Source: Lachnospiraceae bacterium (lineage in GTDB: Bacteria; Bacillota; Clostridia; Lachnospirales; Lachnospiraceae). Taken from it: a DNA stretch of 53,117 nt. The stretch is taken from the NCBI GenBank assembly GCA_017453965.1, contig JAFTEI010000134.1:1-53117 (forward strand), written 5' to 3'. A program made the position numbers and the translations under genes. Shown piece by piece: positions 3,358-44,804 of the stretch; the first letter of the stretch is position 1; each line of letters starts with the position of its first letter. The notes under the pieces are model-generated. The model ran no database searches, was not told the origin of the DNA, and saw only the letters and a list, made by a program, of their open reading frames with translations.

Positions 3358-4441
3358 CTTGAACCCTTTTGATCTCCTCCAGATACCCGCAGCCAAAATG
3401 CTTTGCGGGCTCTATCATTGCTCCCTCGCCCCACTCATTCCAGGCGTTGACATAGACGAAGTCGTTTTTCCTGCCCTCCGTCTTTTTCTTAAGCTCCGTA
3501 AGCAGCTCTCCGAAAAGCGCCGGGCTTGAACCGGTATATACCAGGCCCTTGTAGCCCCTCCTGGGAGTATTGTCCCAGCCTGCCAGGATACCGGGATATT
3601 CGTTCTGTGCGTACTCCCTTTTAGCTATCCCATCATAGATATGCTTTATTGGTATGCGGCGCTCCAGCAGCTTATTCTTTCTGAAAGTGTTGATAAAGGT
3701 CCTGGCTGCAACGGTCACGTTATACTCTGCCGTGGCAAAAGCCGACATATCGTGCTTTAGAGTATAGCCCGGCTCAAAGTAGTACCAGCCCCCGAAGCGC
3801 TTCCTTATCTCCGGCCTGTCCTCCGTCTGAGCCGCTGTACGCCCTCCTATAAAGTATATCCCTTCGAACCCCTCCTCCACGGCCCTCTTATTAAAATAGT
3901 CCGCCATTGCCGCGAGGGACTCTATCTCAAAGGTCCGGTATATCTGAAATACCGGCTTCCCGTCTATCTTTATATACCTTTCGTCCTTAAAGAACCGCAG
4001 CAGATACCTGAAATGCTCCTCCCAGTCGGCCTCATTGCCGTACTCCTGCTTTAAGAGTACCTCCTCGGCCTTGTCGTACCAGGCCCGGGTCCAGCTCTCG
4101 TTGGCCCAGCATAAAGAATATCTTAAATCTATATCCCTGTTCTCAAGCAGTATCTCAAGAGGAGTCTCCATAAGCTTTTTTCCCTTGAAATAATACTGGT
4201 AGAACATAAAGCCGTAGATGCCGTATTTTTTCGCTAGCTCCGCCTGCCGCCTCAAGGTTCCGGCCCCGTCCTCCTTAAGGTCGTAATATACGCCGTCCAG
4301 CGGCTCCGCAGGCTGTATATGCCCCTTATAAAGCGGTTTGGCGCCCTTTACCGCCGTCCATTCGGTGTAACCCTTCCCCCACCAGCTGTCATTTTCCGGG
4401 AAGCTATGAAATTGGGGAAGATATATGGCTATGACCCTCAT
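3341..4441 (-). CDS. WbsX-like / GH99-like domain protein
   Basis: IAIYLPQFH...WWGKGYTEW, CWANESW, GWDNTPRR, NAWNEWGEG motifs. Confidence 0.88.
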   Translation of the reverse strand: MRVIAIYLPQFHSFPENDSWWGKGYTEWTAVKGAKPLYKGHIQPAEPLDGVYYDLKEDGAGTLRRQAELAKKYGIYGFMFYQYYFKGKKLMETPLEILLENRDIDLRYSLCWANESWTRAWYDKAEEVLLKQEYGNEADWEEHFRYLLRFFKDERYIKIDGKPVFQIYRTFEIESLAAMADYFNKRAVEEGFEGIYFIGGRTAAQTEDRPEIRKRFGGWYYFEPGYTLKHDMSAFATAEYNVTVAARTFINTFRKNKLLERRIPIKHIYDGIAKREYAQNEYPGILAGWDNTPRRGYKGLVYTGSSPALFGELLTELKKKTEGRKNDFVYVNAWNEWGEGAMIEPAKHFGCGYLEEIKRVQDETIS

Positions 4442-4454
4442 TCGTTCCCTCCAT

Positions 4455-4509
4455 TATTAAAGGGGCTTTTATCCCCGGTAATATCTGACTTATAGCTCAT
4501 AGCTACTCC
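4455..4509 (-). repeat. 55-bp junction element, copy 1 (mini-ORF 4438-4500, MSYKSDITGDKSPFNNGGNE)
   Basis: Minus strand reads GGAGTAGCTATGAGCTATAAGTCAGATATTACCGGGGATAAAAGCCCCTTTAATA; near-identical copies at 23452, 39563 and 44750. Confidence 0.95.
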
Positions 4510-5723
4510 ACTACTTTTCCACGCTCCGCCGACGAAAGCCGGCCTAAGGCATAGTAAAAAACCGGAACCGAAAGGGCAAAGGAAAGCGTGTTGGAGCCTA
4601 TGGAGATCACAAGGGTCATAAGCACGATGCAGACCTCGGGGGCAAAACGCCTTATATTCTTAAAGCCCCTCTTAAGGCAGAGCAGCACCAGAAAGACAAA
4701 CAGCGACAGACCTATGATCCCGGTCTCGCAGTAGAGCTTCGCCAGCCCTCCGTCGGCTATGACGTGCTCCGCATAGCCTATCGCCCTGTGCCCATTGGCT
4801 CCAAGCCCATTGCCGGTCCATATGGAGACCATGTTGTTGGCCGCTCCCACCCACTGGTCGGAGCGCTCTCCTATCGCCAGCGGAAGGCTTATCAGCCTGT
4901 AGAAGACCTTCATGAAAACTGCGTTTGCAGCCACAAAGAGGGCCACGGCCCCTGCGATAATTATCCCGACCTCTGCAAATAAATATTTTTTGTCCAGCTT
5001 TTTATACACAAAAAACAGCACTATGTTGAAATACACGATTACCAGGAGCGCCGCACTCATGGACGCTCTCTGATTGCTCATAAAGGCTATGAGGCAGCCT
5101 CCGGCAAAGCCCAGTAGCCACTGCCTCTTTCCGCTGTCCACGAGGAGCCTCAGTGAGACCGGCATGAGGGCCACTCCAAGGTAGCCCAACACCGTACTGC
5201 CCGTGACCGACACCATCCTGACCCTCAGGGTCTGAACATCTGCCTTTGAAATCAGGCCGTGCTCGAAGCAGAAGTCTATATAAAAGCCGGGGGCGCTCAG
5301 ATACAGGATGATACTGAATATTCCAAGGACCAGCACCGCCGCCGCAAACAGGACATAGAACCGCCTTATGCTCTTTTCCCCGGAATAAGCCGCTATATAA
5401 TAAAAGACCATGGGCAGGACGGCCGTAAAGAGCTCCCCTATATATACCGAGGGCGGCATCCCGAAGACCCCCGCCCAGACCGCCGAGGCCAGGTTATAAA
5501 GGAGCCACAGAGACATTATCTTGTCCGGTACGTTAAGGTCCTTAAGCTTCGGGAGAGACCCGGATAAAAACAGCCAGATCCAGGTCAGCACAGCCAGGAT
5601 CGCCGCCGCCGCGCCGGGTCTGAATACCGAATAGTTTAAGAGCGTCAGCATATATACGGCGATTAAAACCGGATAATATAAGGCCGGTATATCTGTTTTA
5701 TTTACCAACATAGTTCTGTTCAT
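4503..5723 (-). CDS. Wzy polymerase / O-antigen ligase family membrane protein
   Basis: About 10-12 hydrophobic segments; SNQRAS, ERSDQW, TGNGLGANG and ETGIIG motifs; lies in the glycan operon. Confidence 0.75.
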   Translation of the reverse strand: MNRTMLVNKTDIPALYYPVLIAVYMLTLLNYSVFRPGAAAAILAVLTWIWLFLSGSLPKLKDLNVPDKIMSLWLLYNLASAVWAGVFGMPPSVYIGELFTAVLPMVFYYIAAYSGEKSIRRFYVLFAAAVLVLGIFSIILYLSAPGFYIDFCFEHGLISKADVQTLRVRMVSVTGSTVLGYLGVALMPVSLRLLVDSGKRQWLLGFAGGCLIAFMSNQRASMSAALLVIVYFNIVLFFVYKKLDKKYLFAEVGIIIAGAVALFVAANAVFMKVFYRLISLPLAIGERSDQWVGAANNMVSIWTGNGLGANGHRAIGYAEHVIADGGLAKLYCETGIIGLSLFVFLVLLCLKRGFKNIRRFAPEVCIVLMTLVISIGSNTLSFALSVPVFYYALGRLSSAERGKVVE

Positions 5724-6850
5724 GCCGTAACTGCCTCTACTACCTCAGCCCACGAGCCGGAGGGCACCTTATCCTCCCCCCTGTCCGCGGGACTCAGCTT
5801 CTTTTCAATAACTTCCTGCATGAGCTTCGCAAGCTCCTCCGGAGAAAAGGAATCAAAATATTCCGCATTCCCGTAGCCCTTAAGTACCTCCCTGCAAAAG
5901 GGGGTGTCCGAGGCCAGCACCATTCCGCCCACGCTCCTTACCTCTGCCGGGGGATAGCCGTAGGTCTCGATATAGGAGGGAAATATCAATGTCCCCGTCC
6001 TGTAAAGGTCAAACAGGTCATTTCGCGGGAGCTTTCCCCTCCACTCTATATTGTTTTCCGTAGCCTTCGACAGCGTTACCAGCCCTTCGCCAGCCTCCTC
6101 CGCCGTCAGGGTAAAGATCACCTTAAAATCAGTGATGCCCCTCTCGTTCAAAAGCTTCGCCGCCCTTATGACGCATTCATGATTTTTGTATATTATGGGT
6201 CCTGAGGGGAAAACAAAGAGCTTTTCGTCAAAGCGCATTTCACCAAAGTCCCCTCCCGCATACCCCTCAGGAGCCGCCGGCAGCGGCGGAAGAATGGCGC
6301 AGACCTTCTCCGCCGGGACATTTAATTTCTCTAAAACCGCCTCTCTCATCCAATGGGTCTGGACTATTACCCTGTCTGCCCTCCTTATGGAGGAATCTAT
6401 CAGCTTCGATATAAAATACTGATATATGGCAAGGTGCCGCTCTTCCCTTTTAAACAGGGAAAACCGCTTTGTCTTCTGAAAGCCCAGGGGCTGGTGTACG
6501 TATAGCGCCGTCCCGGCTCCGAGATTGCCACTCGGTAGGGTATTTTCCATCGAGAAGACCCTGTCCGGCTTAAGGCTCCTTATATAGCCCGCGCCCGTGA
6601 ACCATTCAAACTTAAGCCTGCTGGCCCATGAGCTCTTTACATCCGAGCGCAGGAGGGCGTAAATTCCCGCCTCTCCCTTAAGCTGTCCGGGATTCTCCAG
6701 CTTCTCCGCCGCCGGTATTATCCCGGGGACCCCGGTAATGAAGACCCACTCATTCCCATCGGCCCTTTCCTTAAGGTAGGCGGAAAAGTCCTTCAATATG
6801 GATTCCGCCCCGGTCTTGCTGGCGGCTATGTCCAGGACCACTATCCTCAT
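5720..6850 (-). CDS. Glycosyltransferase family 4
   Basis: YKNHE and LIFPSYIETYGYPPAE (EX7E) motifs. Confidence 0.88.
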   Translation of the reverse strand: MRIVVLDIAASKTGAESILKDFSAYLKERADGNEWVFITGVPGIIPAAEKLENPGQLKGEAGIYALLRSDVKSSWASRLKFEWFTGAGYIRSLKPDRVFSMENTLPSGNLGAGTALYVHQPLGFQKTKRFSLFKREERHLAIYQYFISKLIDSSIRRADRVIVQTHWMREAVLEKLNVPAEKVCAILPPLPAAPEGYAGGDFGEMRFDEKLFVFPSGPIIYKNHECVIRAAKLLNERGITDFKVIFTLTAEEAGEGLVTLSKATENNIEWRGKLPRNDLFDLYRTGTLIFPSYIETYGYPPAEVRSVGGMVLASDTPFCREVLKGYGNAEYFDSFSPEELAKLMQEVIEKKLSPADRGEDKVPSGSWAEVVEAVTA

Positions 6851-7974
6851 TTTTTGAGCCAGACAGTCTCGTTTACTATCTTTGCGTAGCTCTGTATGAG
6901 CCTGACTACCTTGACCGAGACATTTTCATCCGCGTAGTCGGCGGCTTCCACCGCGATCTCGTTATTCTCCGCCATGGATACCGCAAGCTCGGCCGCCTGC
7001 TCCACATCCTCTTTTTTGATCCCGCCTATGACGATCGTGCCCTTGTCCAGCACCTCAGGCCTCTCCGTAGAGGTACGGATAAGAACGGCCGGAAAACCCA
7101 TCATCGCGGACTCTTCTGAAAGGGTTCCGCTGTCCGAGAGTACACACTTCGCGTTCTTTTGAAGCTTATTGTAGTCAAGATAGCCGAAGGGCTCCAAGGA
7201 GCGCACCCTCTTATCGAATTTAAAGCCCCTCTTTTCTATGAACTTCCTGCTCCTGGGATGGGTGGAGTAGATTATTGGCATATCGTATTTTTCAGCCATA
7301 TGATTTACGGCCTCCATAAGCGAGAGGAAATTTTCCTCGTCGTCGATATTCTCCTCCCTGTGAGCTGAGAGCAGTATATATTTCTTTTTTTCAAGCCCAA
7401 GGCGCTCCAATACGTCTGAAGCCTCTATATCCTTTTCAAAGGCCTTGAAGACCTCCTTCATCGGGGAGCCGGTGACGAATATTGTCTTTCCGTCTATGCC
7501 CTCGCTTAGAAGGTAGCGTCTGGAATGCTCGGTGTAGGGCAGGTTTATATCCGAAATGTGATCGACTATCTTCCTGTTTATCATCTCCGGCACGTTCCAG
7601 TCCCAGCAGCGGTTCCCGGCCTCCATATGAAAGATCGGTATCTTAAGCCTCTTGGCGCTTATGGCGCTCAGGGCCGAATTGGTATCTCCGAGGATCAGGA
7701 CCGCATCGGGCCTTACCTCCTGCATGAGCTTATAGGACCTGGAAATAATGTTCCCCATGGTCTCCCCGAGATCCCCGCCTACGCTGTCCAGATAGTAGTC
7801 GGGCTCCCTCAGCTTAAGGTCCTCAAAGAAGACCTGATTTAACGTATAGTCATAGTTCTGCCCCGTGTGCACCAGCACGTGGTCAAAGTACCTGTCCGCA
7901 CACTTTATGACCTCACAAAGCCTTATTATCTCCGGCCTGGTCCCCAGCACCGTCATAAGTTTGAATCTGCTCAT
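6847..7974 (-). CDS. UDP-N-acetyl-sugar 2-epimerase (FnlC/WbjD/Cap5G type)
   Basis: GTRPEIIRL, HTGQNYD, FHMEAGNR, HREEN, SDSGTLSEE motifs; adjacent to the FnlA-type gene. Confidence 0.92.
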   Translation of the reverse strand: MSRFKLMTVLGTRPEIIRLCEVIKCADRYFDHVLVHTGQNYDYTLNQVFFEDLKLREPDYYLDSVGGDLGETMGNIISRSYKLMQEVRPDAVLILGDTNSALSAISAKRLKIPIFHMEAGNRCWDWNVPEMINRKIVDHISDINLPYTEHSRRYLLSEGIDGKTIFVTGSPMKEVFKAFEKDIEASDVLERLGLEKKKYILLSAHREENIDDEENFLSLMEAVNHMAEKYDMPIIYSTHPRSRKFIEKRGFKFDKRVRSLEPFGYLDYNKLQKNAKCVLSDSGTLSEESAMMGFPAVLIRTSTERPEVLDKGTIVIGGIKKEDVEQAAELAVSMAENNEIAVEAADYADENVSVKVVRLIQSYAKIVNETVWLKK

Positions 7975-9011
7975 GCCTCTATACCCATCTCCTTCAGCTC
8001 GTCCCTGATATAGGAGAGCCTAAGCAGCCTTTCCTTCACTCCCTCCACATCGAGGAGCTCGGTATTGTCGGAGTTGAAGGATTCCTCCTCCTTTCTTCCG
8101 GTATTCCCCTCTATAAAGTATTTATCGTAGTTCAAATCCCTGTTGTCAGCGGGCACTCTGAAGAAATTACCCATATCCACGGCCCTTGCCCTCTCCTCGA
8201 CTGTGAGCAGGGTCTCCGACATCTTTTCCCCGTGCCTTATTCCTATTATCCTCGTCTTTACATCCTCGGCATGAAAGAGCTCCTTTACCGCCTGCGCAAG
8301 GGTTCCTATGGTGCTTGCAGGGGCCTTCTGCACCATGATATCACCGCTGTGCGCATTTTCGAAGGCGTAGACCACCAGCTCCACGGCCTCCTCCAGGGAC
8401 ATTATAAACCTGGTCATGGCGGGCTCGGTGATCGTGATATCCTTCCCCTGCTTTATCTGCTCTATGAAGAGCGGCACTACTGAACCCCTTGAGCAGAGGA
8501 CGTTTCCATAGCGGGTGCCGCAGATCAGCGTCTTGTCCGGCTCCACTGTCCGGCTCTTGGCTACGAAGACCTTTTCCATCATGGCCTTGGAGGTACCCAT
8601 TGCATTTATCGGATAGGCCGCCTTGTCAGTAGACAGACAGATGACCTTTTTGACCCCGGCGTGTATGGCCTCGTTCAGCATGTTGTCTGTGCCATATACG
8701 TTCGTCCTCACCGCCTCCATCGGGAAAAACTCACAGCTGGGGACCTGCTTCAGGGCCGCGGCGTGGAAGATATAATCGACTCCCTCCATGGCGTCCCTCA
8801 GGGAGTGCATATCCCTGACATCCCCTATGCAGTATTTTATCTTTTTGTTGTTGTACAGGTGACGCATATCGTCCTGCTTCTTTTCGTCCCTGGAAAAAAT
8901 ACGTATCTCCGCGATATCCGTATTTAAAAATCTGTTCAGCACAGCGTTGCCGAAGGAACCTGTGCCTCCGGTTATCATCAGTACCTTGCCGTCAAACATG
9001 TTGTCCGCCAT
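7971..9011 (-). CDS. UDP-GlcNAc 4,6-dehydratase/epimerase (FnlA/WbjB/Cap5E type)
   Basis: TGGTGSFG, FSRDEKKQDDMR, AALKQVPSCEFFP, STDKAAYPINAMG, DNRDLNYDKYF. Confidence 0.93.
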   Translation of the reverse strand: MADNMFDGKVLMITGGTGSFGNAVLNRFLNTDIAEIRIFSRDEKKQDDMRHLYNNKKIKYCIGDVRDMHSLRDAMEGVDYIFHAAALKQVPSCEFFPMEAVRTNVYGTDNMLNEAIHAGVKKVICLSTDKAAYPINAMGTSKAMMEKVFVAKSRTVEPDKTLICGTRYGNVLCSRGSVVPLFIEQIKQGKDITITEPAMTRFIMSLEEAVELVVYAFENAHSGDIMVQKAPASTIGTLAQAVKELFHAEDVKTRIIGIRHGEKMSETLLTVEERARAVDMGNFFRVPADNRDLNYDKYFIEGNTGRKEEESFNSDNTELLDVEGVKERLLRLSYIRDELKEMGIEA

Positions 9012-9012
9012 C

Positions 9013-10206
9013 TCAACTCTCCTTCATAAAGTTTTCCAGTATATCCACTGACCTTCCGACGTTAAAATTCGCCTTGAGGTATTCTCTTCCGTTATTTCCA
9101 AGCTCCCGCAGATTCTCCTGATTTTCGCAGATCTTCTCCACTGCCTCGATAAAGGCGGTCGGATCGTCCGAGGGACACCACCAGCCGCACCTCGCTTCGT
9201 ATGTCACCAGGGCGTGTATATCCGTCACCCTGTCTGTCACCGCCAGCACAGGCTTGGCGAGCTGCATATAGGACAGCACCCTGGAGGGGTAATTCGGTAT
9301 CGAAAAATCCGGGCTCAGAATCACCATCCCCACGTCCGCCTCCTCCAGGAGCTTCTCATATTCATCTCTGGGCAGAAAGGGTATATAGGTGAGGTTGGCG
9401 GGCTTCTTTTCCCTGATGAAGTCCTCCACCAGCCCCTGCTCCGTCCCGCTGCCGATTATCGTAAAGCTGGCCCTCATATAGCCCTTGAGCCTCTCTATGC
9501 AGAGCAGCAGAAAATCTATGGCCTGGGGCTTCCCCAGGTTCCCCCCGAAAATAAAGCTGATCTGCTCCTTTTCCTGCACCGTCTGACCTTCCCTGGCGGA
9601 GTCCTTTTCAACCTCCCTTATCTTTACCGTATTGGGGAAAAGCTCCAGCCTGGAGACATCCAGCTCCCGGCTATGGCTCTTAAGATACTCTATATTAGCG
9701 TTCGACATACAGCCGATCCGGTCAGAGGCCTCATAGAGCTTTCTCTCCAGATAGGAAAAATATTTGTGCATAAGGCTGTTTTCCCGCATCATCTTTAGGT
9801 CTACCGCGTTCTGCGGGAAAATGTCCTTGAGCATAAGGTAGCTCCTGGCCCTGTAATGCTTCTTAAGCCGGGATACCAGCCTTCCGAAGGTCACCGGGGG
9901 CGTCGGGTAGATTATGAGGTCTATTTTTTCACTCCAGATATTCTTTTTAACGGCCCTGTAAAAGAGCCGTCCCATGGTGAGCTGGATAAAGCCCTTTCTT
10001 ATCTTGTCGGAGCTGAACTGATTATCGAGCCGGACGTAGACAGTGCTTACCCCATGCTCATGGACCACACCCTCAGGAACCTCTGTCTCGGAGGTGCCGG
10101 CCAGGCAAAATACCTTATGTCCCCTGTCCCTGAGCTCCTCCACCAGATCCAGGTATATTGTAGAAGTTTTAAAGCTGAATATCTGAAACAGGCACAATAC
10201 GTTCAT
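9013..10206 (-). CDS. Glycosyltransferase family 4 (WbuB-like L-FucNAc/L-QuiNAc transferase)
   Basis: YPTPPVT, LKDIFPQNAVD, GGNLGKPQ, IPNYPSR motifs typical of WbuB-like enzymes. Confidence 0.85.
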   Translation of the reverse strand: MNVLCLFQIFSFKTSTIYLDLVEELRDRGHKVFCLAGTSETEVPEGVVHEHGVSTVYVRLDNQFSSDKIRKGFIQLTMGRLFYRAVKKNIWSEKIDLIIYPTPPVTFGRLVSRLKKHYRARSYLMLKDIFPQNAVDLKMMRENSLMHKYFSYLERKLYEASDRIGCMSNANIEYLKSHSRELDVSRLELFPNTVKIREVEKDSAREGQTVQEKEQISFIFGGNLGKPQAIDFLLLCIERLKGYMRASFTIIGSGTEQGLVEDFIREKKPANLTYIPFLPRDEYEKLLEEADVGMVILSPDFSIPNYPSRVLSYMQLAKPVLAVTDRVTDIHALVTYEARCGWWCPSDDPTAFIEAVEKICENQENLRELGNNGREYLKANFNVGRSVDILENFMKES

Positions 10207-10886
10207 AAAAACAGCTCCTCCAGGATACCTTTAAGCTCTTTAAGAGAAGTTATCCTCTTATTTTCCCTGCACTCTCCGCCGTAGGGCGCCTCGCTGTACA
10301 CTCCGCCCTCCCTCACTATCCTGACGGTCTTTATCGGTGAGTTTTTCATTATCTCAAAGTCCTTCTTCGGATTGTCTCCCACATAGACAAAGGAGGAGAG
10401 CGGTATCCCAAGCTTTCCGGAAAGCAGCTCAAACCCCCTTATCGAGGGCTTCCAGTACTCCCTCCCCAGCTCGTCCGTATAGACGATGGCCTCAAAATAT
10501 TTATCCAGCTCCACGGCTTTGGCTTTATTTTTCTGAGTCACAAGATAGCCGTCCGTCAGGACACCCAGGCTGCAGCCGCTCCCCTCAAGCTCCTCAAGGG
10601 CGGGAAGCACATCGCCGCAAAAGCCTATGTCCGGTTCATGCTCCCGGTACACCCTGACGAGGCTCTTAATGTCCTCCTCGTCATAGCCGATGCCAAGCCG
10701 GTCATACATGCGGTTAAAAACATTTTGAGCGGAGCTTTCAAACTCCTCCCTGAGGATGCCGTATATCCGCTCCGCACTGAGGCCCCTTCCTACCTCCAGA
10801 TACTTTGCCACAGCGCTGTAGCCGCTGAAAACGAAATCCCTTTCGAGGATCAGAGTATCGTCCAGGTCAAAAATAACTGCCTTCAT
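10203..10886 (-). CDS. HAD-family hydrolase
   Basis: FDLDDTL, LTDG, KP and YVGDNPKKD HAD motifs I-IV. Confidence 0.9.
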   Translation of the reverse strand: MKAVIFDLDDTLILERDFVFSGYSAVAKYLEVGRGLSAERIYGILREEFESSAQNVFNRMYDRLGIGYDEEDIKSLVRVYREHEPDIGFCGDVLPALEELEGSGCSLGVLTDGYLVTQKNKAKAVELDKYFEAIVYTDELGREYWKPSIRGFELLSGKLGIPLSSFVYVGDNPKKDFEIMKNSPIKTVRIVREGGVYSEAPYGGECRENKRITSLKELKGILEELFL

Positions 10887-11868: not shown

Positions 11869-12488
11869 CAGTCTCCCGTATCTTTATTGCCCATAAACTC
11901 AGGCATCGTTGCATTGTTTTCGGAGCTTATCCCGTCCCTTTTAAGCACCTTCCCTACGGTCATGAAGATTATCTTCATATCCAGGGCGAAGGAAACATTC
12001 CTGGCGTATTCTACGTCGTATTCGAATTTCTTCTCCCAGCTTAAGGCGTTGCGCCCGTTGACCTGCGCAAGTCCCGTAAGCCCCGGAAGTACGTCGTGCC
12101 TGTGCCTCTGCTCCTCATTGTACCTCGGCAGATAGCGCACCAACAGCGGCCTCGGCCCCACGAAGGACATATCCCCTTTAAAAATATTGATAAATTCAGG
12201 CAGCTCGTCCAGCGACGTGGCCCTTAAGGCCTTTCCGAAGGACGTAAGCCTCTCCCCGTCGCTTAGAAGCTCACCGTTTTCATCCCTCGCATCGGTCATG
12301 GTCCTGAATTTATACATCTTAAAGATCTTTTCGTGAAGTCCCGGTCTCTCCTGCGTAAAAAGCACGGGGCTTCCCAGCTTGAGCCGCACCAGCAGAGCCG
12401 TCACCAGCAGTATGGGCGAGCTTACGATGAGGGCCAGCCCCGAAAGCAGTATGTCAAAAAGCCTTTTCACGAACCTGCGGTATATCAC
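11868..12488 (-). CDS. Monotopic phosphoglycosyl transferase (PglC/EpsL-like initiating sugar transferase)
   Basis: [39 protein letters not shown]. Confidence 0.93.
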
Positions 12489-15503: not shown

Positions 15504-15595
15504 CTATAGTCTCCGGAACAGCTTCCGCTTATATTTCGCCTTTTAATTTTTTCCCTGGCTCATTGCCTTTACAAAATATGCTAATAAATCAACCT

Positions 15596-15624
15596 ATTAT
15601 ATCAACATCTAGATACAGCGTCAA
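15596..15624 (-). promoter_or_regulatory. Sigma-A promoter of the PglF-led glycan operon
   Basis: TTGACG-17bp-TATAAT with extended -10 TG. Confidence 0.75.
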
Positions 15625-15661
15625 ACTTTACATAACATCATTCTGTCTCACTCGGTTTTTG

Positions 15662-15825
15662 CAAGTGTACTGACACGTTCATCTTTGAACTAATCGCGCA
15701 GAATGCATTTTCAGTCTGCAAGAAAGAAAATCACAGGCGTAGCGGGCTACGTCAAGATTTTCTGACGAAGCAGATGGAAATGCAGGCAAGCGATTAGTTC
15801 GATTATGAATGTGTCAGGACACTAG
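15662..15825. mobile_element. ~165-bp palindromic MITE/REP-like element with CTAGTGT-type end
   Basis: Whole segment is an imperfect inverted repeat (gtgtactgacacgttcat..gaactaatcgc / gcgattagttc..atgaatgtgtcaggacac) with a central gcgtagc-gg-gctacgt hairpin. Confidence 0.7.
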
Positions 15826-23451: not shown

Positions 23452-23506
23452 TATTAAAAGAGATTTTATCCCCGGTAATATCTGACTTATAGCTCATAGC
23501 TACTCC
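23452..23506 (-). repeat. 55-bp junction element, copy 2 (mini-ORF 23447-23497, MSYKSDITGDKISFNR)
   Basis: 52/55 identical to copy 1, no indels. Confidence 0.95.
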
Positions 23507-23555
23507 TCTATTTGATCTAGTGTAGCGTTCTCATTTTCAAGCACGAATCCGCGAA

Positions 23556-29274: not shown

Positions 29275-29279
29275 TCTGC

Positions 29280-31151: not shown

Positions 31152-31190
31152 TTTATTCCTCCGCTAAGGGGTTTTACCCCTTGTGTTCTT

Positions 31191-34403: not shown

Positions 34404-34427
34404 TTCATGGCTCCTATCATATACGTT

Positions 34428-34829: not shown

Positions 34830-34854
34830 GTTCTGTCAAATCCGCTACCTTGAC

Positions 34855-35271: not shown

Positions 35272-35278
35272 CCCATCC

Positions 35279-36007: not shown

Positions 36008-38236
36008 TCAGTTTTCCTCTATCCGATAGGATCTTTCCAGAGCGAATCGCAGGCCCGTGTATCTGAGCTGCTCGCGATCGTTTCTGATCATAGACATGAC
36101 AGTTTTTTTGCTGCCAATAAGAACGACGCACCTTTTGGCCCTGGTGATCGCCGTATATAAGATATTTCTCGTCATAAGCACATCGGGCCCCGACAGGATC
36201 GGAACTACTACCGCCGGATATTCGCTCCCCTGGGATTTATGTATGGTTATAGCAAAGGAGAGCTCCAGCTCCGACAGCCTCTCCCTGGAATAGACCGCGG
36301 CCCGTCCGTCGTCAAAAAGCACCTTAAGGGTCTCTGAATCGTAAATATCGGTGACCGTACCCATGTCCCCGTTAAAGACACCCTTTCCGCTTTCCCGGAG
36401 GGCGCTGTCCGGCCTGTCCATGAGCCAGTTCAGCTCATAGTTATTCTTGATCTGCATAACCTTGTCCCCGATGCGGAAGGAGCCGGAGCTGCCTTTAAGC
36501 TCCTCTCCATCGGAACTTACGGGATTTAAGGCCGCCCTGAGTTTTTCATTGAGATTGACGATACCCAGAGCCCCCTTTTTCATGGGAGCCATGACCTGTA
36601 TCTCGTAGGGATTTATGCCGAGGTATCCGGACAGCTTTTTTTGTACGAGGTAGATTATGCCCTCTATAATGCGGTCCTCATCCTCCATCTCAAGGAAATA
36701 GAAGTCCCCGCTGTTTTTATTGTCGATATGTATGTCGCGCCCTTCGAGCATCGCGTGGGCATTTTTAACGATATCCCTTTTTTCCGCCTGCCTGAAAACA
36801 TGCCTCAGGGGTATTACCTTTATAACTCCGCTGTCTATTATGTCCTTCAAAACGGCCCCCGGCCCCACACTCGGCAGCTGCTTGTCATCGCCGACCATTA
36901 TAAGGCGGGTGCCCGGAGCTATGGCGCTCAGCAGGGCATGAAACAGATAGGTGTCCACCATGGACATTTCATCTATTATCACGACATTGGTCTCCAGGGG
37001 ATTTTCCGCATTTCTGTCGAACTGGATAAAGGTCCTGTCCTCGTCCTCGATCCCCCCGTTTACCTCCAGCATCCTGTGGATAGTCGTAGCCGGAACCCCC
37101 GTGGCCTCCGACAGACGTTTAGCGGCTCTTCCCGTGGGCGCGGCAAGAGTCACAAGCATACCCCTGGAGCCGTAATAGCTTAAGAGCACTCTTATCAGCG
37201 TCGTCTTTCCGGTTCCCGGCCCTCCCGTTATGACCAGGACACCGTTCCTGATGGCTTCGGCGACGCCGTCTCTTTGCACCGGGTCAAGGGTGATGCCCGA
37301 CAGTACCTCGCTGCGCGCTATCTCGTCTTCAACGCTCACCGACTCACTGTCGATGGCTTCATCTATATCGTGGAGCAGCATCGCGCACTCGCTTTCCTTG
37401 CGGTAAAGCTCCGTCGGGTAGATATATGAAACAGCCCCGTAGCGCTTCTGCACAACTCTTCTGTTCATTATGAGGTCAGCGAGTCCGTCCGATACCGCAG
37501 CCTCCGCCTCCAGGAGCTCTGAGGCCCTGTTCATGAGCTCGGAAGCGGGAAGACAGACGTGGCCGTCCGAGCGCGCCCGGCTTAGGACGTAGATCAGGCC
37601 GGCCCTTATCCTCGAGGGGGAATCCTGGGCCACCCCGGCCCTTTTGGCTATGTCGTCCGCGATCTTAAACCCTATTCCCTCCATATCCTCCGTCAGCGAA
37701 TAGGGGTCGTTTTTTATCACGAAAAATATATCCTCGCCGTATTTTTCATAGAGCCTTAAAGCCAGACCACCGGAGATCCCATATTCCGCAAGCTGCATCA
37801 TGACTCTGCGGGTATGGGATTTTTCTTCAAAGGAAAGGGCTATCTGCCTGGCCTTATTTTCGGATATCCCCCTGATCTCGGCCAGCCGTTCCGGCTCCTC
37901 CTCCATTATCCTGAAGGTATCAGCTCCGAATTTCGATACGATCCTCTCCGCAAGGGCCGCCCCGACTCCCTTTATGGCTCCGCTGGCGAGGTAGCGCTGC
38001 ATTGCGGGAGCTCCCTGAGCCTCGAGCTCGCGCCAGGATACGGCCCTGAACTGCCTGCCGTAGCGGGAATCCTCCACGAATTCCCCCTCTGCAGAGATCT
38101 CGATTCCGGCCTCAATAGCAGAAAAGGTGCCCACTACGGTCACCTTTGCGTGATTGCTCTCTACGTTTAAAACTGCATATCCGTTGACGGGATTTTGATA
38201 AATGATGTTTTCTACAAAACCATGAATTTCAGACAT
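36008..38236 (-). CDS. recD2: ATP-dependent RecD2 helicase
   Basis: N-terminal HhH region (IKGVG, GIGFKIAD); GGPGTGKT, IDEMSM, QLPSVGPG, TIHKSQGSEY. Confidence 0.95.
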   Translation of the reverse strand: MSEIHGFVENIIYQNPVNGYAVLNVESNHAKVTVVGTFSAIEAGIEISAEGEFVEDSRYGRQFRAVSWRELEAQGAPAMQRYLASGAIKGVGAALAERIVSKFGADTFRIMEEEPERLAEIRGISENKARQIALSFEEKSHTRRVMMQLAEYGISGGLALRLYEKYGEDIFFVIKNDPYSLTEDMEGIGFKIADDIAKRAGVAQDSPSRIRAGLIYVLSRARSDGHVCLPASELMNRASELLEAEAAVSDGLADLIMNRRVVQKRYGAVSYIYPTELYRKESECAMLLHDIDEAIDSESVSVEDEIARSEVLSGITLDPVQRDGVAEAIRNGVLVITGGPGTGKTTLIRVLLSYYGSRGMLVTLAAPTGRAAKRLSEATGVPATTIHRMLEVNGGIEDEDRTFIQFDRNAENPLETNVVIIDEMSMVDTYLFHALLSAIAPGTRLIMVGDDKQLPSVGPGAVLKDIIDSGVIKVIPLRHVFRQAEKRDIVKNAHAMLEGRDIHIDNKNSGDFYFLEMEDEDRIIEGIIYLVQKKLSGYLGINPYEIQVMAPMKKGALGIVNLNEKLRAALNPVSSDGEELKGSSGSFRIGDKVMQIKNNYELNWLMDRPDSALRESGKGVFNGDMGTVTDIYDSETLKVLFDDGRAAVYSRERLSELELSFAITIHKSQGSEYPAVVVPILSGPDVLMTRNILYTAITRAKRCVVLIGSKKTVMSMIRNDREQLRYTGLRFALERSYRIEEN

Positions 38237-38635
38237 TTATGACAATTCCGAAGACTGATCCTCAGCCTGCAGCTGAGCCGCAGTGACGGCTCCCTCGCCG
38301 TTTCTCTTCATCTGCTCATAGAGCATCTGGGCGATACCCATACCGGACTGCTCCGACGTCGTCGAGGCCATCTCCTTAACCATCTGCTCCTTATAATAGT
38401 CCACGAGAGTGCTGGTGGCCTGTGAGCTGTAGTTCTCCTCGGGAATGGTCTTGATCATCTCTTTATAGACCTGCTCGATAAAATAGGATTCAAACTGCTT
38501 GCAGGCATTCATCAGCTCTTCATCGGTGGCTTTTTCAAAATTTTTATTCACCGCGTTCGATGCCCCGGAGCTAAGCGCCTCCGACGCCGCATTCTTCGCC
38601 AGCAGGGACGAATACATATTAGAGGAAATCTCCAT
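38237..38635 (-). CDS. flgJ: Rod-binding protein (FlgJ N-terminal type)
   Basis: LMNACKQFESYFIEQVYKEM...GMGIAQMLYEQM; follows flgG. Confidence 0.85.
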   Translation of the reverse strand: MEISSNMYSSLLAKNAASEALSSGASNAVNKNFEKATDEELMNACKQFESYFIEQVYKEMIKTIPEENYSSQATSTLVDYYKEQMVKEMASTTSEQSGMGIAQMLYEQMKRNGEGAVTAAQLQAEDQSSELS

Positions 38636-38711
38636 TTATTTATCTCCTATATCAAGGGGGTTATATCCCCGGCAAGACTTATCTACAGCCTTAAAAAAAC
38701 TACCCCGTCAC

Positions 38712-39545
38712 TTACCTCAACTGGTTGGCCTGCTGAAGCATCTCGTCCGTAGCCTGGATCGCCTTGGAATTCAGCTCATATGCCCTCTGTGCTATTATAA
38801 GGTTTACCATCTCATCCGCAACCTGTACGTTGGAATTCTCCAGGTAGCCCTGCCGCACGACGGAATCGTCCAGCGCCGCGTTGGTCGCCTCGTTAAGAGC
38901 CGGGCCGGAGGCCGCGGATACCTCATAGAGGCTGTCTCCCACCTTATTCAGGCCCTTGGGATTCTGAAACTGGAACAGCCCTATGGCAAGGTTGTTGACC
39001 GGCTGGGGATTATTATTTGCGTCGGGATACATTATGGCGCCGTCTGCCGAGACCACTATCTTATTGGCAATTACCTGCTCTCCGTTTACCGTTGCAGGCA
39101 TGGTTATCGGTACGCCCTGGGAGGAGAGCACCTGCTGTCCGTCCGAGGTACTGAGCTGAAGCGTCCCTCCGGGCCCTAAGGAGAAATTGAAATCTCCGTT
39201 TCTGGTGTAATAGGTCTGCCCGTCCTCTCCCCGAACCGCAAAGAAGCCCTTTCCGGAGATTGCAAAGGCCGTATTGCTTTCGGATTCCAAAAGAGAGCCC
39301 TGGGTAAATTGCGAGGTTATAGAGGCGTTCCTCACACCGAGACCTACCTGGGCCCCGATCGGCTTATTGTCTCCGTTGGCCGTAGAGGTCCTGGTCTGTA
39401 TATTCTGATAGAGCAGAGACTTGAATTCATTGGTCTCTGTCTTATAGCCTGTTGTATTTACGTTTGCGAGATTGTTCGCTATCGTATCCACATTATTCTG
39501 CTGGGCGATCATGCCCGTTGCCGCTGTCCACAATGAACGTACCAT
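38712..39545 (-). CDS. flgG: Flagellar basal-body rod protein FlgG
   Basis: SLWTAATGM, IANNLANVNTTGYK, YTRNGDF, LENSNV, AQRAYELNSK; start ATG at 39545 after AGGAGG. Confidence 0.92.
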   Translation of the reverse strand: MVRSLWTAATGMIAQQNNVDTIANNLANVNTTGYKTETNEFKSLLYQNIQTRTSTANGDNKPIGAQVGLGVRNASITSQFTQGSLLESESNTAFAISGKGFFAVRGEDGQTYYTRNGDFNFSLGPGGTLQLSTSDGQQVLSSQGVPITMPATVNGEQVIANKIVVSADGAIMYPDANNNPQPVNNLAIGLFQFQNPKGLNKVGDSLYEVSAASGPALNEATNAALDDSVVRQGYLENSNVQVADEMVNLIIAQRAYELNSKAIQATDEMLQQANQLR

Positions 39546-39562
39546 CGTCAATTACCTCCTAT

Positions 39563-39617
39563 TATTGAAGGGCGTTTCATCCCCAGTAATATCTGACTTA
39601 TAGCTCATAGCTACTCC
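39563..39617 (-). repeat. 55-bp junction element, copy 3 (mini-ORF 39552-39608, MSYKSDITGDETPFNNRR)
   Basis: 50/55 identical to copy 1, no indels. Confidence 0.95.
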
Positions 39618-39626
39618 TCTACTTTA

Positions 39627-40424
39627 TTATACCGGTCTGCCCAGGTTGTTTACCGTGGGCTCCAACGTGTCGTTTATCGTATTGATGATCCTCTGGTTGG
39701 CCTCGTACTGTCTGGTAACAGCTATCATCTCCACCATCTCGCTTACCGGGCTGACATTGGACTGCTCCAGATAGCCCGAATAAATACTTGCGCCGGAAGG
39801 AACCTCCACAGCTCCATCCACCGCTTCATACATATTTTCACCGTATTTTACGAGATAGTCATAATCCAGACCGGATGCATTGCGTTCGAAATCGGTGGTC
39901 CCAATCTGAGCCACCATATTTCCGCCCTGATAGATGTAGCCCTGGCGATCTATCGTTGTATCGCCAGCGTTCACGTCCAAATTGATATGATTCCCCGCAA
40001 CGTCGAGGACGTAATCTCCGTCCTTAGTTACCAGAGCCCCGTTGATATTCAACGTAAAGGCTCCGTCACGGGTATATTTGACCGATGTATTTCCTGCCTT
40101 ATCCGTAAACTCGATCTCAAAGAAACCGCTGTCGGACAGTGCAAGGTCAAAGGTATTTTCAGTCTCACGGAAAGCTCCCTCGGAAAAATCGTTGTAATTT
40201 TCTCCGATCTTGACTCCGGGGTTCATGGTTCCCATCCGCTGGGTGAGGTTGTAGACCGATTTGTCTTTGATCTTGTAAGCCAGCGCGTCCTTAAACGACT
40301 GGCTGGTCGCCCCCTCCTTTTTATATCCGGTAGTGTTTACATTGGCAAGGTTATTTGTCAATGTATCCATTCTGTGCTGTTCGTTGATCATTCCCGAATA
40401 TGCGGTGTAGAGACCTTTTACCAT
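39627..40424 (-). CDS. flgF: Flagellar hook-basal body rod protein (FlgF/FlgG family)
   Basis: GLYTAYSGM, NNLANVNTTGYKK, YTRDGAF, YLEQSNV, RQYEANQR. Confidence 0.88.
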   Translation of the reverse strand: MVKGLYTAYSGMINEQHRMDTLTNNLANVNTTGYKKEGATSQSFKDALAYKIKDKSVYNLTQRMGTMNPGVKIGENYNDFSEGAFRETENTFDLALSDSGFFEIEFTDKAGNTSVKYTRDGAFTLNINGALVTKDGDYVLDVAGNHINLDVNAGDTTIDRQGYIYQGGNMVAQIGTTDFERNASGLDYDYLVKYGENMYEAVDGAVEVPSGASIYSGYLEQSNVSPVSEMVEMIAVTRQYEANQRIINTINDTLEPTVNNLGRPV

Positions 40425-40464
40425 TTTCTTATCCTCTTTTTAATTTGTTTATCGTCCGATACCT

Positions 40465-41460
40465 TTACGTATCGTCCCTGTAGCCCGCGATAAACTCCAC
40501 ATACTTTCCGGTACCGACCGCTACCGCTGTCATCGGGTCCTCGGCAGTCATGGTATTTATTCCCGTTTTATCGGCTATGAGATCCTCGAGACCTCTCAAG
40601 AGACTTCCGCCTCCGGTCAGGACTATTCCCCTGTCGGCTATATCCGCCGCAAGCTCGGGCGGCGTCTTCTCCAGTACGCTGTGTATCGCGTCCACTATCT
40701 GGGAGGTCGTCTCTCTGAGAGCCTCCTCCATCTCTGTGCTGGTAGCTCTTATAGTCTTGGGAAGACCTGTCACAAGGTCCCTTCCTTTTATATCCATGGA
40801 ATCGGCTTCCGTTCTCTTAAAGCACGAACCGATCTTTATCTTCAGATCCTCAGCGGAACGCTCACCAATAAGGAGCTTATGCTTTTTTCTCATGTAACGG
40901 ACGATAGCCTCGTCAAAGTTATCTCCCGCTATCTTTATCGACGTAGAAACGACCGTGCTGCCAAGAGATATTACAGCTATATCGGAGGTTCCTCCGCCTA
41001 TATCTACCACCATGTTTCCACAGGGCTTTGCTATGTCTATTCCGGCTCCGATGGCTGCCGCTATCGGCTCCTCGATTATGGCGACCTCACGGGCTCCGGC
41101 CTGATAAGCTGCGTCTTCTACCGCCTTCTGCTCAACCTCTGTAACTCCGCTGGGAACTCCGACGCAGATACGGGGTTTTCTGAAGGTTCTCCTTCCCACC
41201 GCCTTCTGCATGAAATATTTCAGCATCTTCTCAGTTACCGTGTAATTGGAAATAACTCCCTGTCTCAACGGACGGACGGCCACGATATTTCCGGGCGTAC
41301 GTCCAAGCATGAGCCTTGCGTTCTCGCCTATCGCTTTGATTTTATTTGTATCTCTGTCAAATGCTACAACAGAGGGTTCCTTCAAAACTACTCCCTTGTC
41401 TTTTATATATACAAGGATGCTCGCCGTCCCTAAATCAATTCCTATATCTGTAGCGACCAT
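40465..41460 (-). CDS. mbl: Rod shape-determining protein, MreB/Mbl
   Basis: DIGIDLGTA, DIGGGT, AGDNFD, LTGGGSLL; position upstream of flgF-flgG favours Mbl. Confidence 0.92.
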   Translation of the reverse strand: MVATDIGIDLGTASILVYIKDKGVVLKEPSVVAFDRDTNKIKAIGENARLMLGRTPGNIVAVRPLRQGVISNYTVTEKMLKYFMQKAVGRRTFRKPRICVGVPSGVTEVEQKAVEDAAYQAGAREVAIIEEPIAAAIGAGIDIAKPCGNMVVDIGGGTSDIAVISLGSTVVSTSIKIAGDNFDEAIVRYMRKKHKLLIGERSAEDLKIKIGSCFKRTEADSMDIKGRDLVTGLPKTIRATSTEMEEALRETTSQIVDAIHSVLEKTPPELAADIADRGIVLTGGGSLLRGLEDLIADKTGINTMTAEDPMTAVAVGTGKYVEFIAGYRDDT

Positions 41461-41481
41461 TTTAATCTCCTCTCAAAAAAC

Positions 41482-41688
41482 GCTAACTGTCCAGAACCCT
41501 TCGGGTTCCGAACAGTTACGGAAGCCCGCAATTAAGATTTGCTTCGCAAATGGGCGGGCTTCCTGCCGAATTCGCCCTTTGGTACGCCCTCAGCAGCAAG
41601 TGCAAAACATGCCAGTGGCATGTTTTGAATGCCGTTTAGATGCGCTGAGCGCATCTGGCATCGTTTTCGGGCTGTTCCGAATAGTTGC
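41482..41688. repeat. Array of REP-like hairpins in the mbl leader
   Basis: taactgt..gaaccc-ttcg-ggttc..acagtta; ggaagcccgc...gcgggcttcc; caaaacatgcca-g-tggcatgttttg; agatgcgc-tga-gcgcatct; closing gttccgaatagttgc. Confidence 0.75.
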
Positions 41689-41704
41689 AAAAACGTCATT
41701 AATC

Positions 41705-41732
41705 ATTATAACTTAAAATGGTCGTTTTACAA
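41705..41732 (-). promoter_or_regulatory. Putative sigma-A promoter of the mbl operon
   Basis: TTGTAA-16bp-TATAAT. Confidence 0.5.
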
Positions 41733-41744
41733 TGAATTTTTTGT

Positions 41745-41823
41745 AAAAAAAGGACACGGACATCTCAGGTGCACTGACTCATTCATAGCAGAACGAAAAA
41801 ATACACCGACGGCATCCGTGCCC
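41745..41823 (-). terminator. Long stem followed by U7 downstream of uvrA
   Basis: gggcacggatg...tgtccgtgtcc-TTTTTTT on the minus strand. Confidence 0.55.
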
Positions 41824-41898
41824 GAATCCACTCCTGATATACTAATCGGACAGTGGCTTTAAAAAATTAAGAGTAAAACGAAAATTTTTTTCAGATTG

Positions 41899-44736
41899 TC
41901 ATTCCTTTTCCAACATTTTTTTAATGAAGGGAGCCGTATGGGATTTTTTATCCTTTGCCAGCTTCTCGGGAGTCCCGGTTGCGACAACTGTTCCTCCTCC
42001 GTCTCCCCCCTCGGGACCCATATCTATGATATAGTCCGCGCATTTTATAACGTCCAGGTTATGCTCTATGACGACCACGGTGTTTCCGCTGTCGGACAGG
42101 CGTCTCAATATCCTTACCAGCTTTTCAACATCGTCGAAATGCAGGCCCGTAGTGGGCTCGTCGAGAATATAGATGGTCTTGCCCGTTCCGCGCTTGGACA
42201 GCTCGGTGGCCAGCTTTATCCTCTGGGCCTCTCCGCCGGAAAGCTCAGTGGAGGGCTGCCCCAGCTTGATATAGGAAAGGCCTACGTCATAAAGGGTCTG
42301 CAGCTTCCGCCGCACGCTCTCGATATTTTCGAAGAAGCCCAGCGCCTCCTCGACCGACATATCCAGCACTTCAAATATGTTTTTGCCTTTATATTTTATG
42401 TCCAGCGTCTCCCTGTTGTACCTGTGTCCGTGGCAGACCTCGCAGGGAACGTAGACATCCGGCAGGAAATTCATCTCTATTTTGATTATCCCGTCTCCGC
42501 CGCAGGCCTCGCAGCGACCTCCCTTGACGTTGAAGGAAAATCTTCCCTTGCTGTAGCCCCTGGCCTTGGCTTCCACCGTGGATGCAAAGAGATCCCTTAT
42601 CATATCGAACATTCCCGTATAGGTGGCGGGATTCGATCTGGGAGTACGGCCAATCGGCGACTGGTCGATGGCGATTACCTTATCCAGCTGCTCCAGTCCC
42701 TCTATACCGTCGTGGTCTCCGGGTATCGTGAGCGCACGGTTCAGGATATGCGCCGTGCTCTTATAGAGGATCTCATTTATGAGTGAGGATTTTCCCGAGC
42801 CTGAAACTCCCGTAACCAGAGTCATTATTCCCAATGGTATCTTTACGTCTATATTTTTAAGGTTATTTTCCCTGGCCCCCTTTATCCTGATCCAGCCCGT
42901 AGGCTTTCTACGTTTCTCCGGGAGCTCGATTCTTTTCTTTCCGCTCAGATACTGGCCGGTTATGGACTCCTCGCAGGCTATCACGTCCTCCACCGTACCG
43001 GCCGCGACCACCTCTCCGCCGTGCATACCCGCCCCGGGGCCTATGTCCACGAGGTAGTCCGCTTCTCGCATGGTATCCTCGTCGTGCTCGACCACTACCA
43101 ATGTATTGCCCAGGTCTCTCAGCGCCTTCAGCGCATCTATAAGCTTGGAATTGTCTCTTTGATGCAGGCCAATCGAGGGCTCATCCAGGATATAGGCCAC
43201 TCCCACGAGGCCTGAGCCTATCTGGGTCGCCAGCCTTATTCTCTGCGCCTCTCCTCCCGAAAGCGAGGCCGTCCCCCTTGACAGCGTCAGGTAATCCAGC
43301 CCCACATCTATCATGAATTTTACACGAGCCCGGATCTCCTTAAGGATTCTTGCCCCTATCATTTTCTGGTACTCGGTCAGCTCCAGCTTTTCGATAAAGT
43401 CCATGAGCGCCGTCACCGAATAAGAGGTCACCTCATGGATGTTTTTATCTCCCAGGGTCACCGCCAGCGAGGAGGCCTTCAGCCTCTGCCCGTGACACAC
43501 AGGACAGGGAGTTATCCTCATGTATTTTTCATATTCCGCCTTCTGCGAATCGCTGAAGGTCTCCCTGTAGCGCTGCTCCATATTTTTGATAAGTCCGGGA
43601 AAGGCTTCGTCGTAAACTCCTGCGGAATACCTTCCCTTATACGGCACCTTGACTATCACTCCGTTGGTCCCGTTGATGAACATATCCTTCACCTTTGCAG
43701 GAAGCTTCTCATAAGGCGTGTCCAGCGAGAATTTATATTTTTCCGCCAGAGCCTTTAACAGCGCGTGGGTGAAGCTGCCCTCCTTATTGGAAGACTGCCA
43801 GCCCGTGACCTGGACGCAGCCCTCATTGAAGGACAGGCTTTTATCCGGTATCATGAGCTCCTCGTCGAATTCCATGCTGTATCCCAGACCGGTACATGCT
43901 GGACAGGCTCCGAAGGGGTTGTTGAAGGAGAAGCTCCTTGGTTCTATTTCTTCTATATTTATACCGCAGTCAGGACAGGAGAAGCTCTCGGAAAAATTGA
44001 GGGGTTCGCCGTCCACAACGTCGACTGTAAGCAGTCCCTCCGAAAGCTTGAGCACGCTCTCTATGGAATCCGCAAGCCTGCGCTCGATACCCTCCTTGAC
44101 CACGAGACGATCCACCACGATATCTATATTGTGCTTGATATTCTTATCCAGCTTGATATCCTCGGACAGCTCATACATATTGCCGTCGACCCGTACTCTC
44201 ACGTAGCCGCTCTTGCGGGCCCTTTCGAATATTTTGGCATGTTCTCCCTTCCTGCCCCGGACCACAGGCGCCTCCAGCATTATCTTCGTCTTCTCTGGCA
44301 GCTTCATTATACGGTCGACCATCTGGTCTACATTCTGCTTCTCAATGACCCTGCCGCAATTCGGACAGTGCGGGGTCCCCACTCTTGCGTAAAGCAGGCG
44401 GAAGTAGTCATATATCTCCGTGACCGTTCCCACCGTCGAACGGGGATTTCTGTTTGTAGATTTCTGGTCTATGGATATGGCCGGGGGAAGGCCCTCTATT
44501 GAATCCACCTCCGGTTTTTCCATCTGTCCCAAAAACTGACGCGCGTAAGAGGAGAGGGATTCCATATATCTCCTCTGGCCCTCCGCATAAATAGTATCAA
44601 AGGCAAGTGAGGACTTTCCGGAACCGGAAAGCCCTGTCAGCACTACAAATTCATTTCTCGGTATGTCTATCGAGAGGTCCTTCAGGTTATGAACCTTGGC
44701 CCCTCTTATCTTGATAAACTTCTTTGCGTCTTTCAA
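41899..44736 (-). CDS. uvrA: Excinuclease ABC subunit A
   Basis: Two ABC ATPase modules ([27 protein letters not shown] x2), zinc fingers; TTG start. Confidence 0.98.
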
Positions 44737-44749
44737 ATCATATCTCCAT

Positions 44750-44804
44750 TATTAAAGGGAGTTTTATCCCCAGCAACATCTGACTTGTAGCTCATAGCTG
44801 CTCC
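44750..44804 (-). repeat. 55-bp junction element, copy 4 (mini-ORF 44733-44795, [20 protein letters not shown])
   Basis: 48/55 identical to copy 1, no indels. Confidence 0.93.

Follow-up and report, generated by a model that had tools for sequence, protein, structure and literature searches.

The window analysed here comprises the 53,117 nucleotides of contig JAFTEI010000134.1 (assembly GCA_017453965.1) from a Lachnospiraceae bacterium. It carries five copies of a short gene-less repeat, all on the minus strand and each directly before a gene. The repeat unit is a mobile element, present or absent at the same sites in close relatives. An earlier description made from the sequence alone had presented it as a dispersed, gap-free 55-bp cassette in four copies, encoding a conserved micropeptide coupled to the downstream gene. 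All four copies were verified in the sequence at the minus-strand positions reported, and a repeat search of the window returned four gap-free 69-nt copies with 86–87% identity to the reference; the other repeat families listed for the window had no copies more than 81% identical. The cassette itself is real, but the true unit is 62 nt long and starts 7 nt further 5′ (39563–39624 for copy 3), and a fifth, diverged copy that lacks the ATG had been overlooked at 38647–38710. The features of the window are as follows.

4455..4516, minus strand: copy 1 (62 nt), before a WbsX-type glycosyltransferase gene (Pfam PF14307)
4438..4500, minus strand: mini-ORF (open reading frame) of copy 1, 20 codons, whose TGA overlaps the next ATG; likely incidental
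23452..23513, minus strand: copy 2 (62 nt), before a 117-aa ORF with no Pfam match
38647..38710, minus strand: copy 5 (64 nt), diverged, without ATG (profile E 4e-9), before a rod-binding-domain gene (PF10135)
39563..39624, minus strand: copy 3 (62 nt), between two flagellar basal-body rod genes (Pfam)
39601..39613, minus strand: hairpin 1 of copy 3 (TAGCT, loop ATG, AGCTA), the variable 5′ domain, whose loop is the "start codon"
39556..39598, minus strand: 3′ module of copy 3, consisting of AGTCAGA, hairpin 2 (39563–39591, base TATT/AATA) and then the Shine-Dalgarno sequence (SD)
44750..44811, minus strand: copy 4 (62 nt), before uvrA

On the sense strand, the unit runs from AAG-NAG and CGGAG through hairpin 1, TAAR, TCAGA and hairpin 2 to the SD of the next gene. 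Hairpin 1 is formed by YAGC, a variable loop and GCTR, with loop and stem variants across copies; the ATG is its 3-nt loop and is missing from 50 of 119 copies in the source genome. Hairpin 2 is formed by TATTA-CC-GGGG, a loop and CCCC-TT-TAATA. The unit thus contains two internal stem-loops and a ribosome-binding site at its 3′ end, and is positioned upstream of ORFs, while its ends, AAG-NAG-C and TTTAATA, are not inverted repeats of each other.

Copies, orientation and sites of insertion

Copies were collected from the source genome (G000; 2.37 Mb, 82% complete) with an iterated nhmmer profile at E ≤ 0.01. This genome-wide search, which had been proposed as a check on the cassette, yielded 128 copies against 0 in the reversed genome, so the copies are real and far beyond chance. 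All 112 full cores differ from one another. Similarity to the best-scoring copy reaches at least 90% in 32 of them and stays under 80% in 40, which indicates that the family spread over a period of time.

The copies are placed with respect to gene starts and on the sense strand only. An SD and a start codon follow the core TCAGA at 35–65 nt in 93 of 117 anchored copies, compared with 37 of 3000 random places, and the same test on the opposite strand found 0 of 117. The proposed placement at gene junctions is therefore borne out, and the random orientation that had been named as evidence against it was not seen. According to our own ORF rules, which give rough gene calls, a same-strand gene ends within 400 nt upstream of 102 of 123 copies; of these genes, 26 terminate within the unit and another 42 at its left edge. 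The upstream stop is at most 60 nt away in 76 of 123 copies, and the unit is therefore often operon-internal. On the same rough calls, 83 GGAG sites of the source genome are occupied versus 350 unoccupied sites with AGGAG plus ATG. The predicted openness of the SD is 0.54 for genes with a unit and 0.51 for other genes (P = 0.29).

A comparison with the sister genome G041 (Lachnospiraceae; approximately 85% DNA identity to G000, 1.9 Mb, 65% complete) covered 0.89 Mb (with overlaps) of its 1.9 Mb. For 117 copies, 75 had no orthologue in the compared DNA, 4 had one flank and 38 had both flanks. The 38 sites with both flanks are empty in the sister in 22 cases, filled in 6 and otherwise rearranged in 10, with C172:10255 assigned as filled by eye (the script count was 23, 5 and 10, respectively). 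The sites of copies 1, 3, 4 and 5 are empty in G041, copy 1 appearing as a gap of 62 nt; the element is also absent from the site of copy 2, but there the spacer differs more widely. At copy 1 (4503–4530), the stop codon of the empty G041 site is gone, and the upstream gene, extended by a few codons, continues into the unit as far as its TAG.

The same pattern was found among closer strains. Contigs of the public runs X1, X2 and X4 (three studies, approximately 95–97% identical) skip exactly 39563–39624 (62 nt) and 38647–38710 (64 nt), that is, copies 3 and 5. They cross copy 4 with no skip listed, and a fourth public run had too little coverage for site comparison. In the reverse case, units of G041, which holds at least 26 and mostly at other genes than in G000, and the metagenome loci L198, L204 and L206 occupy sites that are empty in the source genome. 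The metagenome scan comprised 26 loci, 16 of them real units and 10 chance matches, and no long gene-bearing version of the unit was found among them. Because close relatives often lack the unit at the corresponding site, a small jumping element is likely. The family is recently active.

The filled and empty sites define how the element joins its target. An empty site reads …AAGGAG-N(5–10)-ATG, whereas a filled one reads target-left, AAG, NAG-CGGAG…TTTAATA-RAG, GAG, target-right, with the start codon and spacer of the downstream gene supplied by the target. The joins lie within the stretch AATA-RAG-GAG that is common to element and target, with 2–5 shared letters, so that the gene does not lose its SD. 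The letters that could belong to either side are AG at copy 5, AATA at copy 3 and AAG at L198 and L206 (C108 and C97 by eye), and AG is the commonest shared dinucleotide. Left and right flanks are uncorrelated by position (largest z value 2.3 of 14 positions), which argues against a regular long target duplication; a weak overall excess of matches (6.07 versus 5.91 of 10, P = 0.013) carries no position-wise signal. Units in genomes G021 and G049 are preceded on the left by a variable SD that ends in GAG and have a constant right end, the latter being selected for by the search pattern.

Fold of the unit and its relatives in other genomes

A BLASTN search with one copy gave no match in any of 40 sampled relatives, and models and patterns were therefore needed. 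A search pattern that describes the 3′ part found matches in 17 of the 47 genomes of the genus and almost none in reversed controls. The covariance model R2, which scored at most 132 candidates per genome and was run without control genomes, matches 23 of the 47 at E ≤ 0.05, at 1 to 84 places each, and leaves 24 without a match; genome G421, from another genus, has 15 matches. All units share AGTCAGA, the hairpin stem and GAGGAG. Their 5′ domains are unrelated hairpins, and the unit length ranges from approximately 56 to 150 nt. Some copies consist of the 3′ module alone, and G000 also holds 5′-only copies. G049 and G421 contain head-to-tail copies and stacks of differing subfamilies, in which each unit begins right after the preceding GAG. 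The tandem array at L181 (G049:C69) has at least three full copies and one cut by the contig end; other arrays are found at L170, L230 and L275, of which L230 is a three-unit mixed stack.

Searches at a greater distance returned little. The order-wide model R1 matched 6 of 149 genomes, all at E > 0.003 and unlike the unit on inspection. A family-wide pattern matched 13 of 400 genomes. G421 alone was matched more than once; of the 12 single matches elsewhere, 7 were inspected and looked like chance. Viral contigs gave 0 matches in one search and 22 in another, all of which lacked the stem or lay inside coding sequence. Membership in an Rfam 15 family was rejected, with no match at gathering score in the window (where only a tRNA was reported), in 12 loci of other subfamilies or in 8 single units. 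Hairpin, twister, pistol and hatchet ribozymes, group I and II introns and the kink-turn were not matched by Rfam either.

The stem base of the 3′ module varies (TATT/AATA, TAAT/ATTA, TATA/TATA) and is complementary in 74 of 84 distinct units. In a 27-row alignment, 93.1% of the stem pairs are paired, compared with 83.1% in shuffled alignments, and the 24 double changes, which represent a few events rather than 24 independent ones, stand against 9.7 after shuffling and no more than 5 in slid controls. RNAalifold, applied to a plain alignment, recovered hairpin 2 alone. When folded as RNA circles, 7 of 10 units, as judged by eye, close a stem of the TATT/AATA type across the joined ends into one rod, and in most of the units tested this rod has a purine-rich loop at the joined ends.

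Other elements were observed in the window. A second multicopy insertion of 212 nt at 41477–41688 is missing in runs X2 and X4, and G000 holds 4 near-full and approximately 14 partial copies of it; a hairpin piece that resembles its second half is nested in units of G021 (L263, L283). A pair of 34-nt inverted repeats with arms 92 nt apart lies in an intergenic gap at 15664–15823, and one tRNA gene at 48746–48833.

Mode of spread

Taken together, the repeats constitute a real and recently active family of non-autonomous, structured elements that target SDs. As for how it moves, we infer that the 62-nt repeat probably spreads as a folded single-stranded or circular intermediate that recombines with look-alike SD sites. 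The unit would be excised or copied as a circle, and its joined ends, …AATA-RAG-GAG-C…, would exchange strands with SD-like sites. An enzyme supplied in trans would recognise the fold of the 3′ module and not fixed DNA ends, and the crossover could take place at any letter of the short stretch in common, as far as the first mismatch. Such a crossover would leave a working SD at its old distance from the start codon, together with a new target for the next unit. The same scheme would account for the joins in G021 and G049 as well as for those of the source genome. Insertions at SD-like words within genes would be purged, sharpening the placement pattern, and little effect on the host gene is predicted. 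The "start codon" is a hairpin loop that belongs to the youngest local subfamily.

Several observations weigh against this mechanism. The alignment used for covariation was drawn from related units selected by pattern and leans toward structure. The circular folds are weak (–1.7 to –12.4 kcal/mol, with no shuffle control), and the two type-A units of G049, as well as C108, fold differently as circles. The join is not at one fixed letter, as copies 3 (AATA) and 5 (AG) illustrate, and copy 4 and C221:20068, with longer overlaps, look like 4–9-nt duplications. Empty sites in near strains could be explained as losses between short repeats and not as sites that were never filled. Furthermore, the mobilising enzyme was not found among the IS110, Y1, reverse transcriptase and tyrosine recombinase candidates. 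Neither IS110 nor the Y1 transposase (PF01797) has a match in G000 or G041, which are 82% and 65% complete, and the sole reverse transcriptase of G000 sits among phage-like genes. By a hand tally of genomes that are mostly incomplete, IS110 matches occur in 5 of 12 high-copy versus 8 of 24 copy-free genomes, and reverse transcriptase matches in 6 of 12 versus 5 of 24. Two tyrosine recombinase loci hold a unit nearby (L459, L466). The reverse transcriptase of G000 (L106; G000:C208:1031-4558) has 370 amino acids, and its layout presumably resembles that of a diversity-generating retroelement.

Two classes of small transposable element were rejected. A class II miniature element with terminal inverted repeats does not agree with unit ends that are not inverted repeats, nor with the absence of left-right flank correlation. 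Repeats of the REP/REPIN type, with RAYT, and miniatures of IS200/IS605 depend on a Y1 (HUH) transposase and a guide tetranucleotide at the foot of a hairpin; PF01797 was not detected in the incomplete genomes G000 and G041, and GTAG precedes hairpin 1 only in some subfamilies.

We consider it unlikely that the unit is a miniature of IS110/IS1111 elements, moved in trans by a bridge-RNA recombinase that is aimed at SD sites and crosses over at a CT/AG core. IS900, for its part, targets SD sites. AG is the dinucleotide most often shared at unit joins, and excerpts of PMC11208160 describe how IS110 elements are released in circular form and recombine through a short core sequence, which is CT in IS621. 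Within the same family, an IS1111-type clade inserts at sites of approximately T[AG]NGG, with 9 of 15 right ends reading NGG after the core, and in one case the insertion lies in the 3′ junction of a unit. The element in question (L321:820-2520, in G022:C78) encodes a 377-aa protein with PF01548 and PF02371 and has sub-terminal inverted repeats, which the unit lacks. Because it has other ends than the unit and a core 2 nt upstream of the unit's join, we read it as a putative second user of the same target. R2 applied to IS110 loci (20 from the genus and, as further loci of the clade, 21 from the family, in incomplete genomes) matched only the unit in which L321 is nested and, weakly, L324, with no match in the latter 21, and a likeness of the unit to the 3′ end of an IS110 element in G005 (E 0.04) did not hold up in 14 relatives. 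A miniature would, moreover, need its ends only, yet the inner fold is the conserved part, and the incomplete genomes G000 and G041 have no IS110 match.

A retro-element in the manner of short interspersed nuclear elements (SINEs) is distinctly unlikely as well. In such a case, a reverse transcriptase would recognise the 3′ module of a transcript and copy it into SD sites, the 5′ domains would be exchangeable and 5′ truncation would be common. A fixed 3′ end joined to unrelated 5′ parts in units of some 56 to 150 nt, copies that consist of the 3′ module alone and short duplications of variable length are consistent with such a process. Pairs of the G-U type also outnumber those of the A-C type by 103 to 61 on the sense strand, a count that has register errors and includes inherited changes many times. 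On the other hand, 6 of 12 high-copy genomes have no reverse transcriptase match, no unit was found in the reverse transcriptase loci searched, and 5′-only copies also exist in G000. The apparent 5′ truncation reflects an ascertainment bias, since R2 finds only 3′ modules. A host-kept cis-regulatory leader, namely a kink-turn-like protein-binding fold around the SD that would place many genes under one regulator, is highly improbable. It agrees with the strict sense orientation, with a conserved fold that includes the SD and with the retention of the 3′ module alone at some genes. Sites, however, turn over between near strains, half of the genus (24 of 47 genomes) has no match, and the predicted openness of the SD is ordinary. 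The genes downstream, in the window the WbsX glycosyltransferase, the flagellar rod genes, the rod-binding protein and uvrA, have no evident function in common, and the TC/GA pairs are nearly invariant and hence outside the covariation test.

The least probable explanation, to which we give very little credence, is the one put forward in the sequence-only reading, that the mini-ORF itself is the function, as a micropeptide or as a relay of ribosomes across operon junctions. Its observations are accurate: the four peptides read as described, copies 1 and 4 have a 4-nt overlap between the stop and the next start, and the stop lies 20 nt before the next start in copy 2 and 6 nt before the flgG ATG in copy 3. 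GGAG also stands 5 nt before the ATG, and in excerpts of PMC12548453 the repeats known as MIRUs are described as working in this way. As a general role, however, a conserved micropeptide is not upheld, judged by the outcome that this reading had itself named as refuting. The ATG is found in 69 of 119 copies and 16 of these 69 are frameshifted just after it; MSYKSD is encoded in 24 of 123 copies, in frames that range from 3 to 522 codons, and the subfamilies of other genomes do not have this frame. In 53 in-register copies, the 48 distinct changes are distributed as 15, 16 and 17 on codon positions 1, 2 and 3, and 11 of them are synonymous (0.23 versus 0.20 expected). The synonymous differences noted earlier do exist, and a per-copy count favours third positions (69 versus 27 and 38), but this dominance arises because a few inherited variants are counted repeatedly, and the distinct changes show no excess.

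The distance between the mini-ORF stop and the downstream start gives a divided answer. In the 55 copies that have an ATG as well as a downstream start, the mini-ORF overlaps that start in 12, shares its frame in 5, ends ahead of it in 27 and continues beyond it in 11. Overlap exceeds the expectation of 6.0 when the tails of ATG-less copies are used as the null (P = 0.0125, one of ten comparisons), but not clearly that of 8.2 when tails are swapped among ATG copies (P = 0.09). The notion of a portable module at operon junctions thus holds insofar as the unit is mobile and lands before start codons, whereas the relay is unsupported as a general role. The mini-ORF is likely an incidental frame, although sorting after insertion may weakly favour coupling in some copies, and a few genes may have taken the loop ATG as their start. 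At C147:17459, C169:2908, C179:4063 and C129:1514 of G000, the loop ATG shares the reading frame of the gene that follows, before genes that we take to be MOSC-like, xseB-like and rpmG-like; at C147 and C169, no other SD-led start lies within approximately 30 nt, and the unit may supply the start.

Beyond the intermediate that we favour, a bolder interpretation is possible, though doubtful: the family may be a bacterial counterpart of SINEs and retrozymes. Its 56–150-nt structured RNAs, perhaps circular, would carry the 3′ module as a mobility signal, and their joined ends would copy an SD, which would guide them to ribosome-binding sites throughout the genome and let them form arrays and take up other repeats as cargo, through an enzyme or ribozyme that has so far been linked to no insertion sequence.

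Relation to known start-site repeats

The repeats work like known kinds but form a new family of non-autonomous elements that target SDs. MIRUs are described in excerpts of PMC12548453 and PMC3184786 as mobile intergenic repeats of 40–100 bp with empty and filled sites, short terminal direct repeats and imperfect terminal inverted repeats, which insert at the start codon, couple an internal ORF at –4 spacing and leave the gene expressed. Going by these excerpts, the present unit resembles them in size (62 nt), copy number (128) and empty sites in relatives. It differs in that it joins at the SD, 5–15 nt upstream of the start, and does not keep its ORF (an overlap in 12 of 55 copies, no ATG in 50 of 119), and the lack of evident terminal inverted repeats also sets it apart from MIRUs as described. 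Neisseria REP2 and Borrelia IR-A/IR-B, according to parts of PMC3184786, have no terminal inverted repeats, two internal stem-loops and a 3′ ribosome-binding site and lie directly upstream of ORFs, all features that the unit shares. REP2, however, is given there as 120–150 bp with a promoter and the ATG of the downstream gene, whereas the unit measures 56–150 nt, ends at the SD, leaves the start codon of that gene to the target, is often operon-internal and has clean empty sites and stacks.

With IS110/IS1111 elements, whose circles recombine at a short core in the portions of PMC11208160 that treat them, the unit shares the lack of a long duplication, a possible short core, one orientation, a putative circular form and an SD-like target. 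In contrast to them, it has no recombinase, bridge RNA or sub-terminal inverted repeats, its join varies and its inner fold is conserved. The Rfam families Clostridiales-2 (RF02937) and freshwater-2 (RF02980) also place an SD and a start codon after a hairpin in their model consensus, but scores of 15.8 and 19.1 bits against gathering thresholds of 58.6 and 49.9 show that the units are not members. From these comparisons, the unit works like MIRUs and REP2 and may move like IS110, while lacking a defining feature of each. No description of such units was found in the literature searched, which is weak evidence, as its coverage has gaps.

How start-site repeats such as MIRUs and REP2 spread is an open question, and for REP2 the mechanism is said to be unexplained in the part of PMC3184786 concerned with it. 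The present family makes this question testable, because it is recently active, its filled and empty alleles are resolved to the nucleotide and a single short module with co-varying pairs is found in half of the genus. Being common to otherwise unrelated units, this module names what an enzyme must recognise. The four neighbouring young copies of the window, which mimic a conserved peptide, are a caution for the search for small ORFs. For the organism, the family rewires translation starts at scale, with 83 occupied sites, 26 of 102 upstream genes that stop inside a unit and a few genes that may start at its ATG, and insertion likely leaves the host genes translatable.

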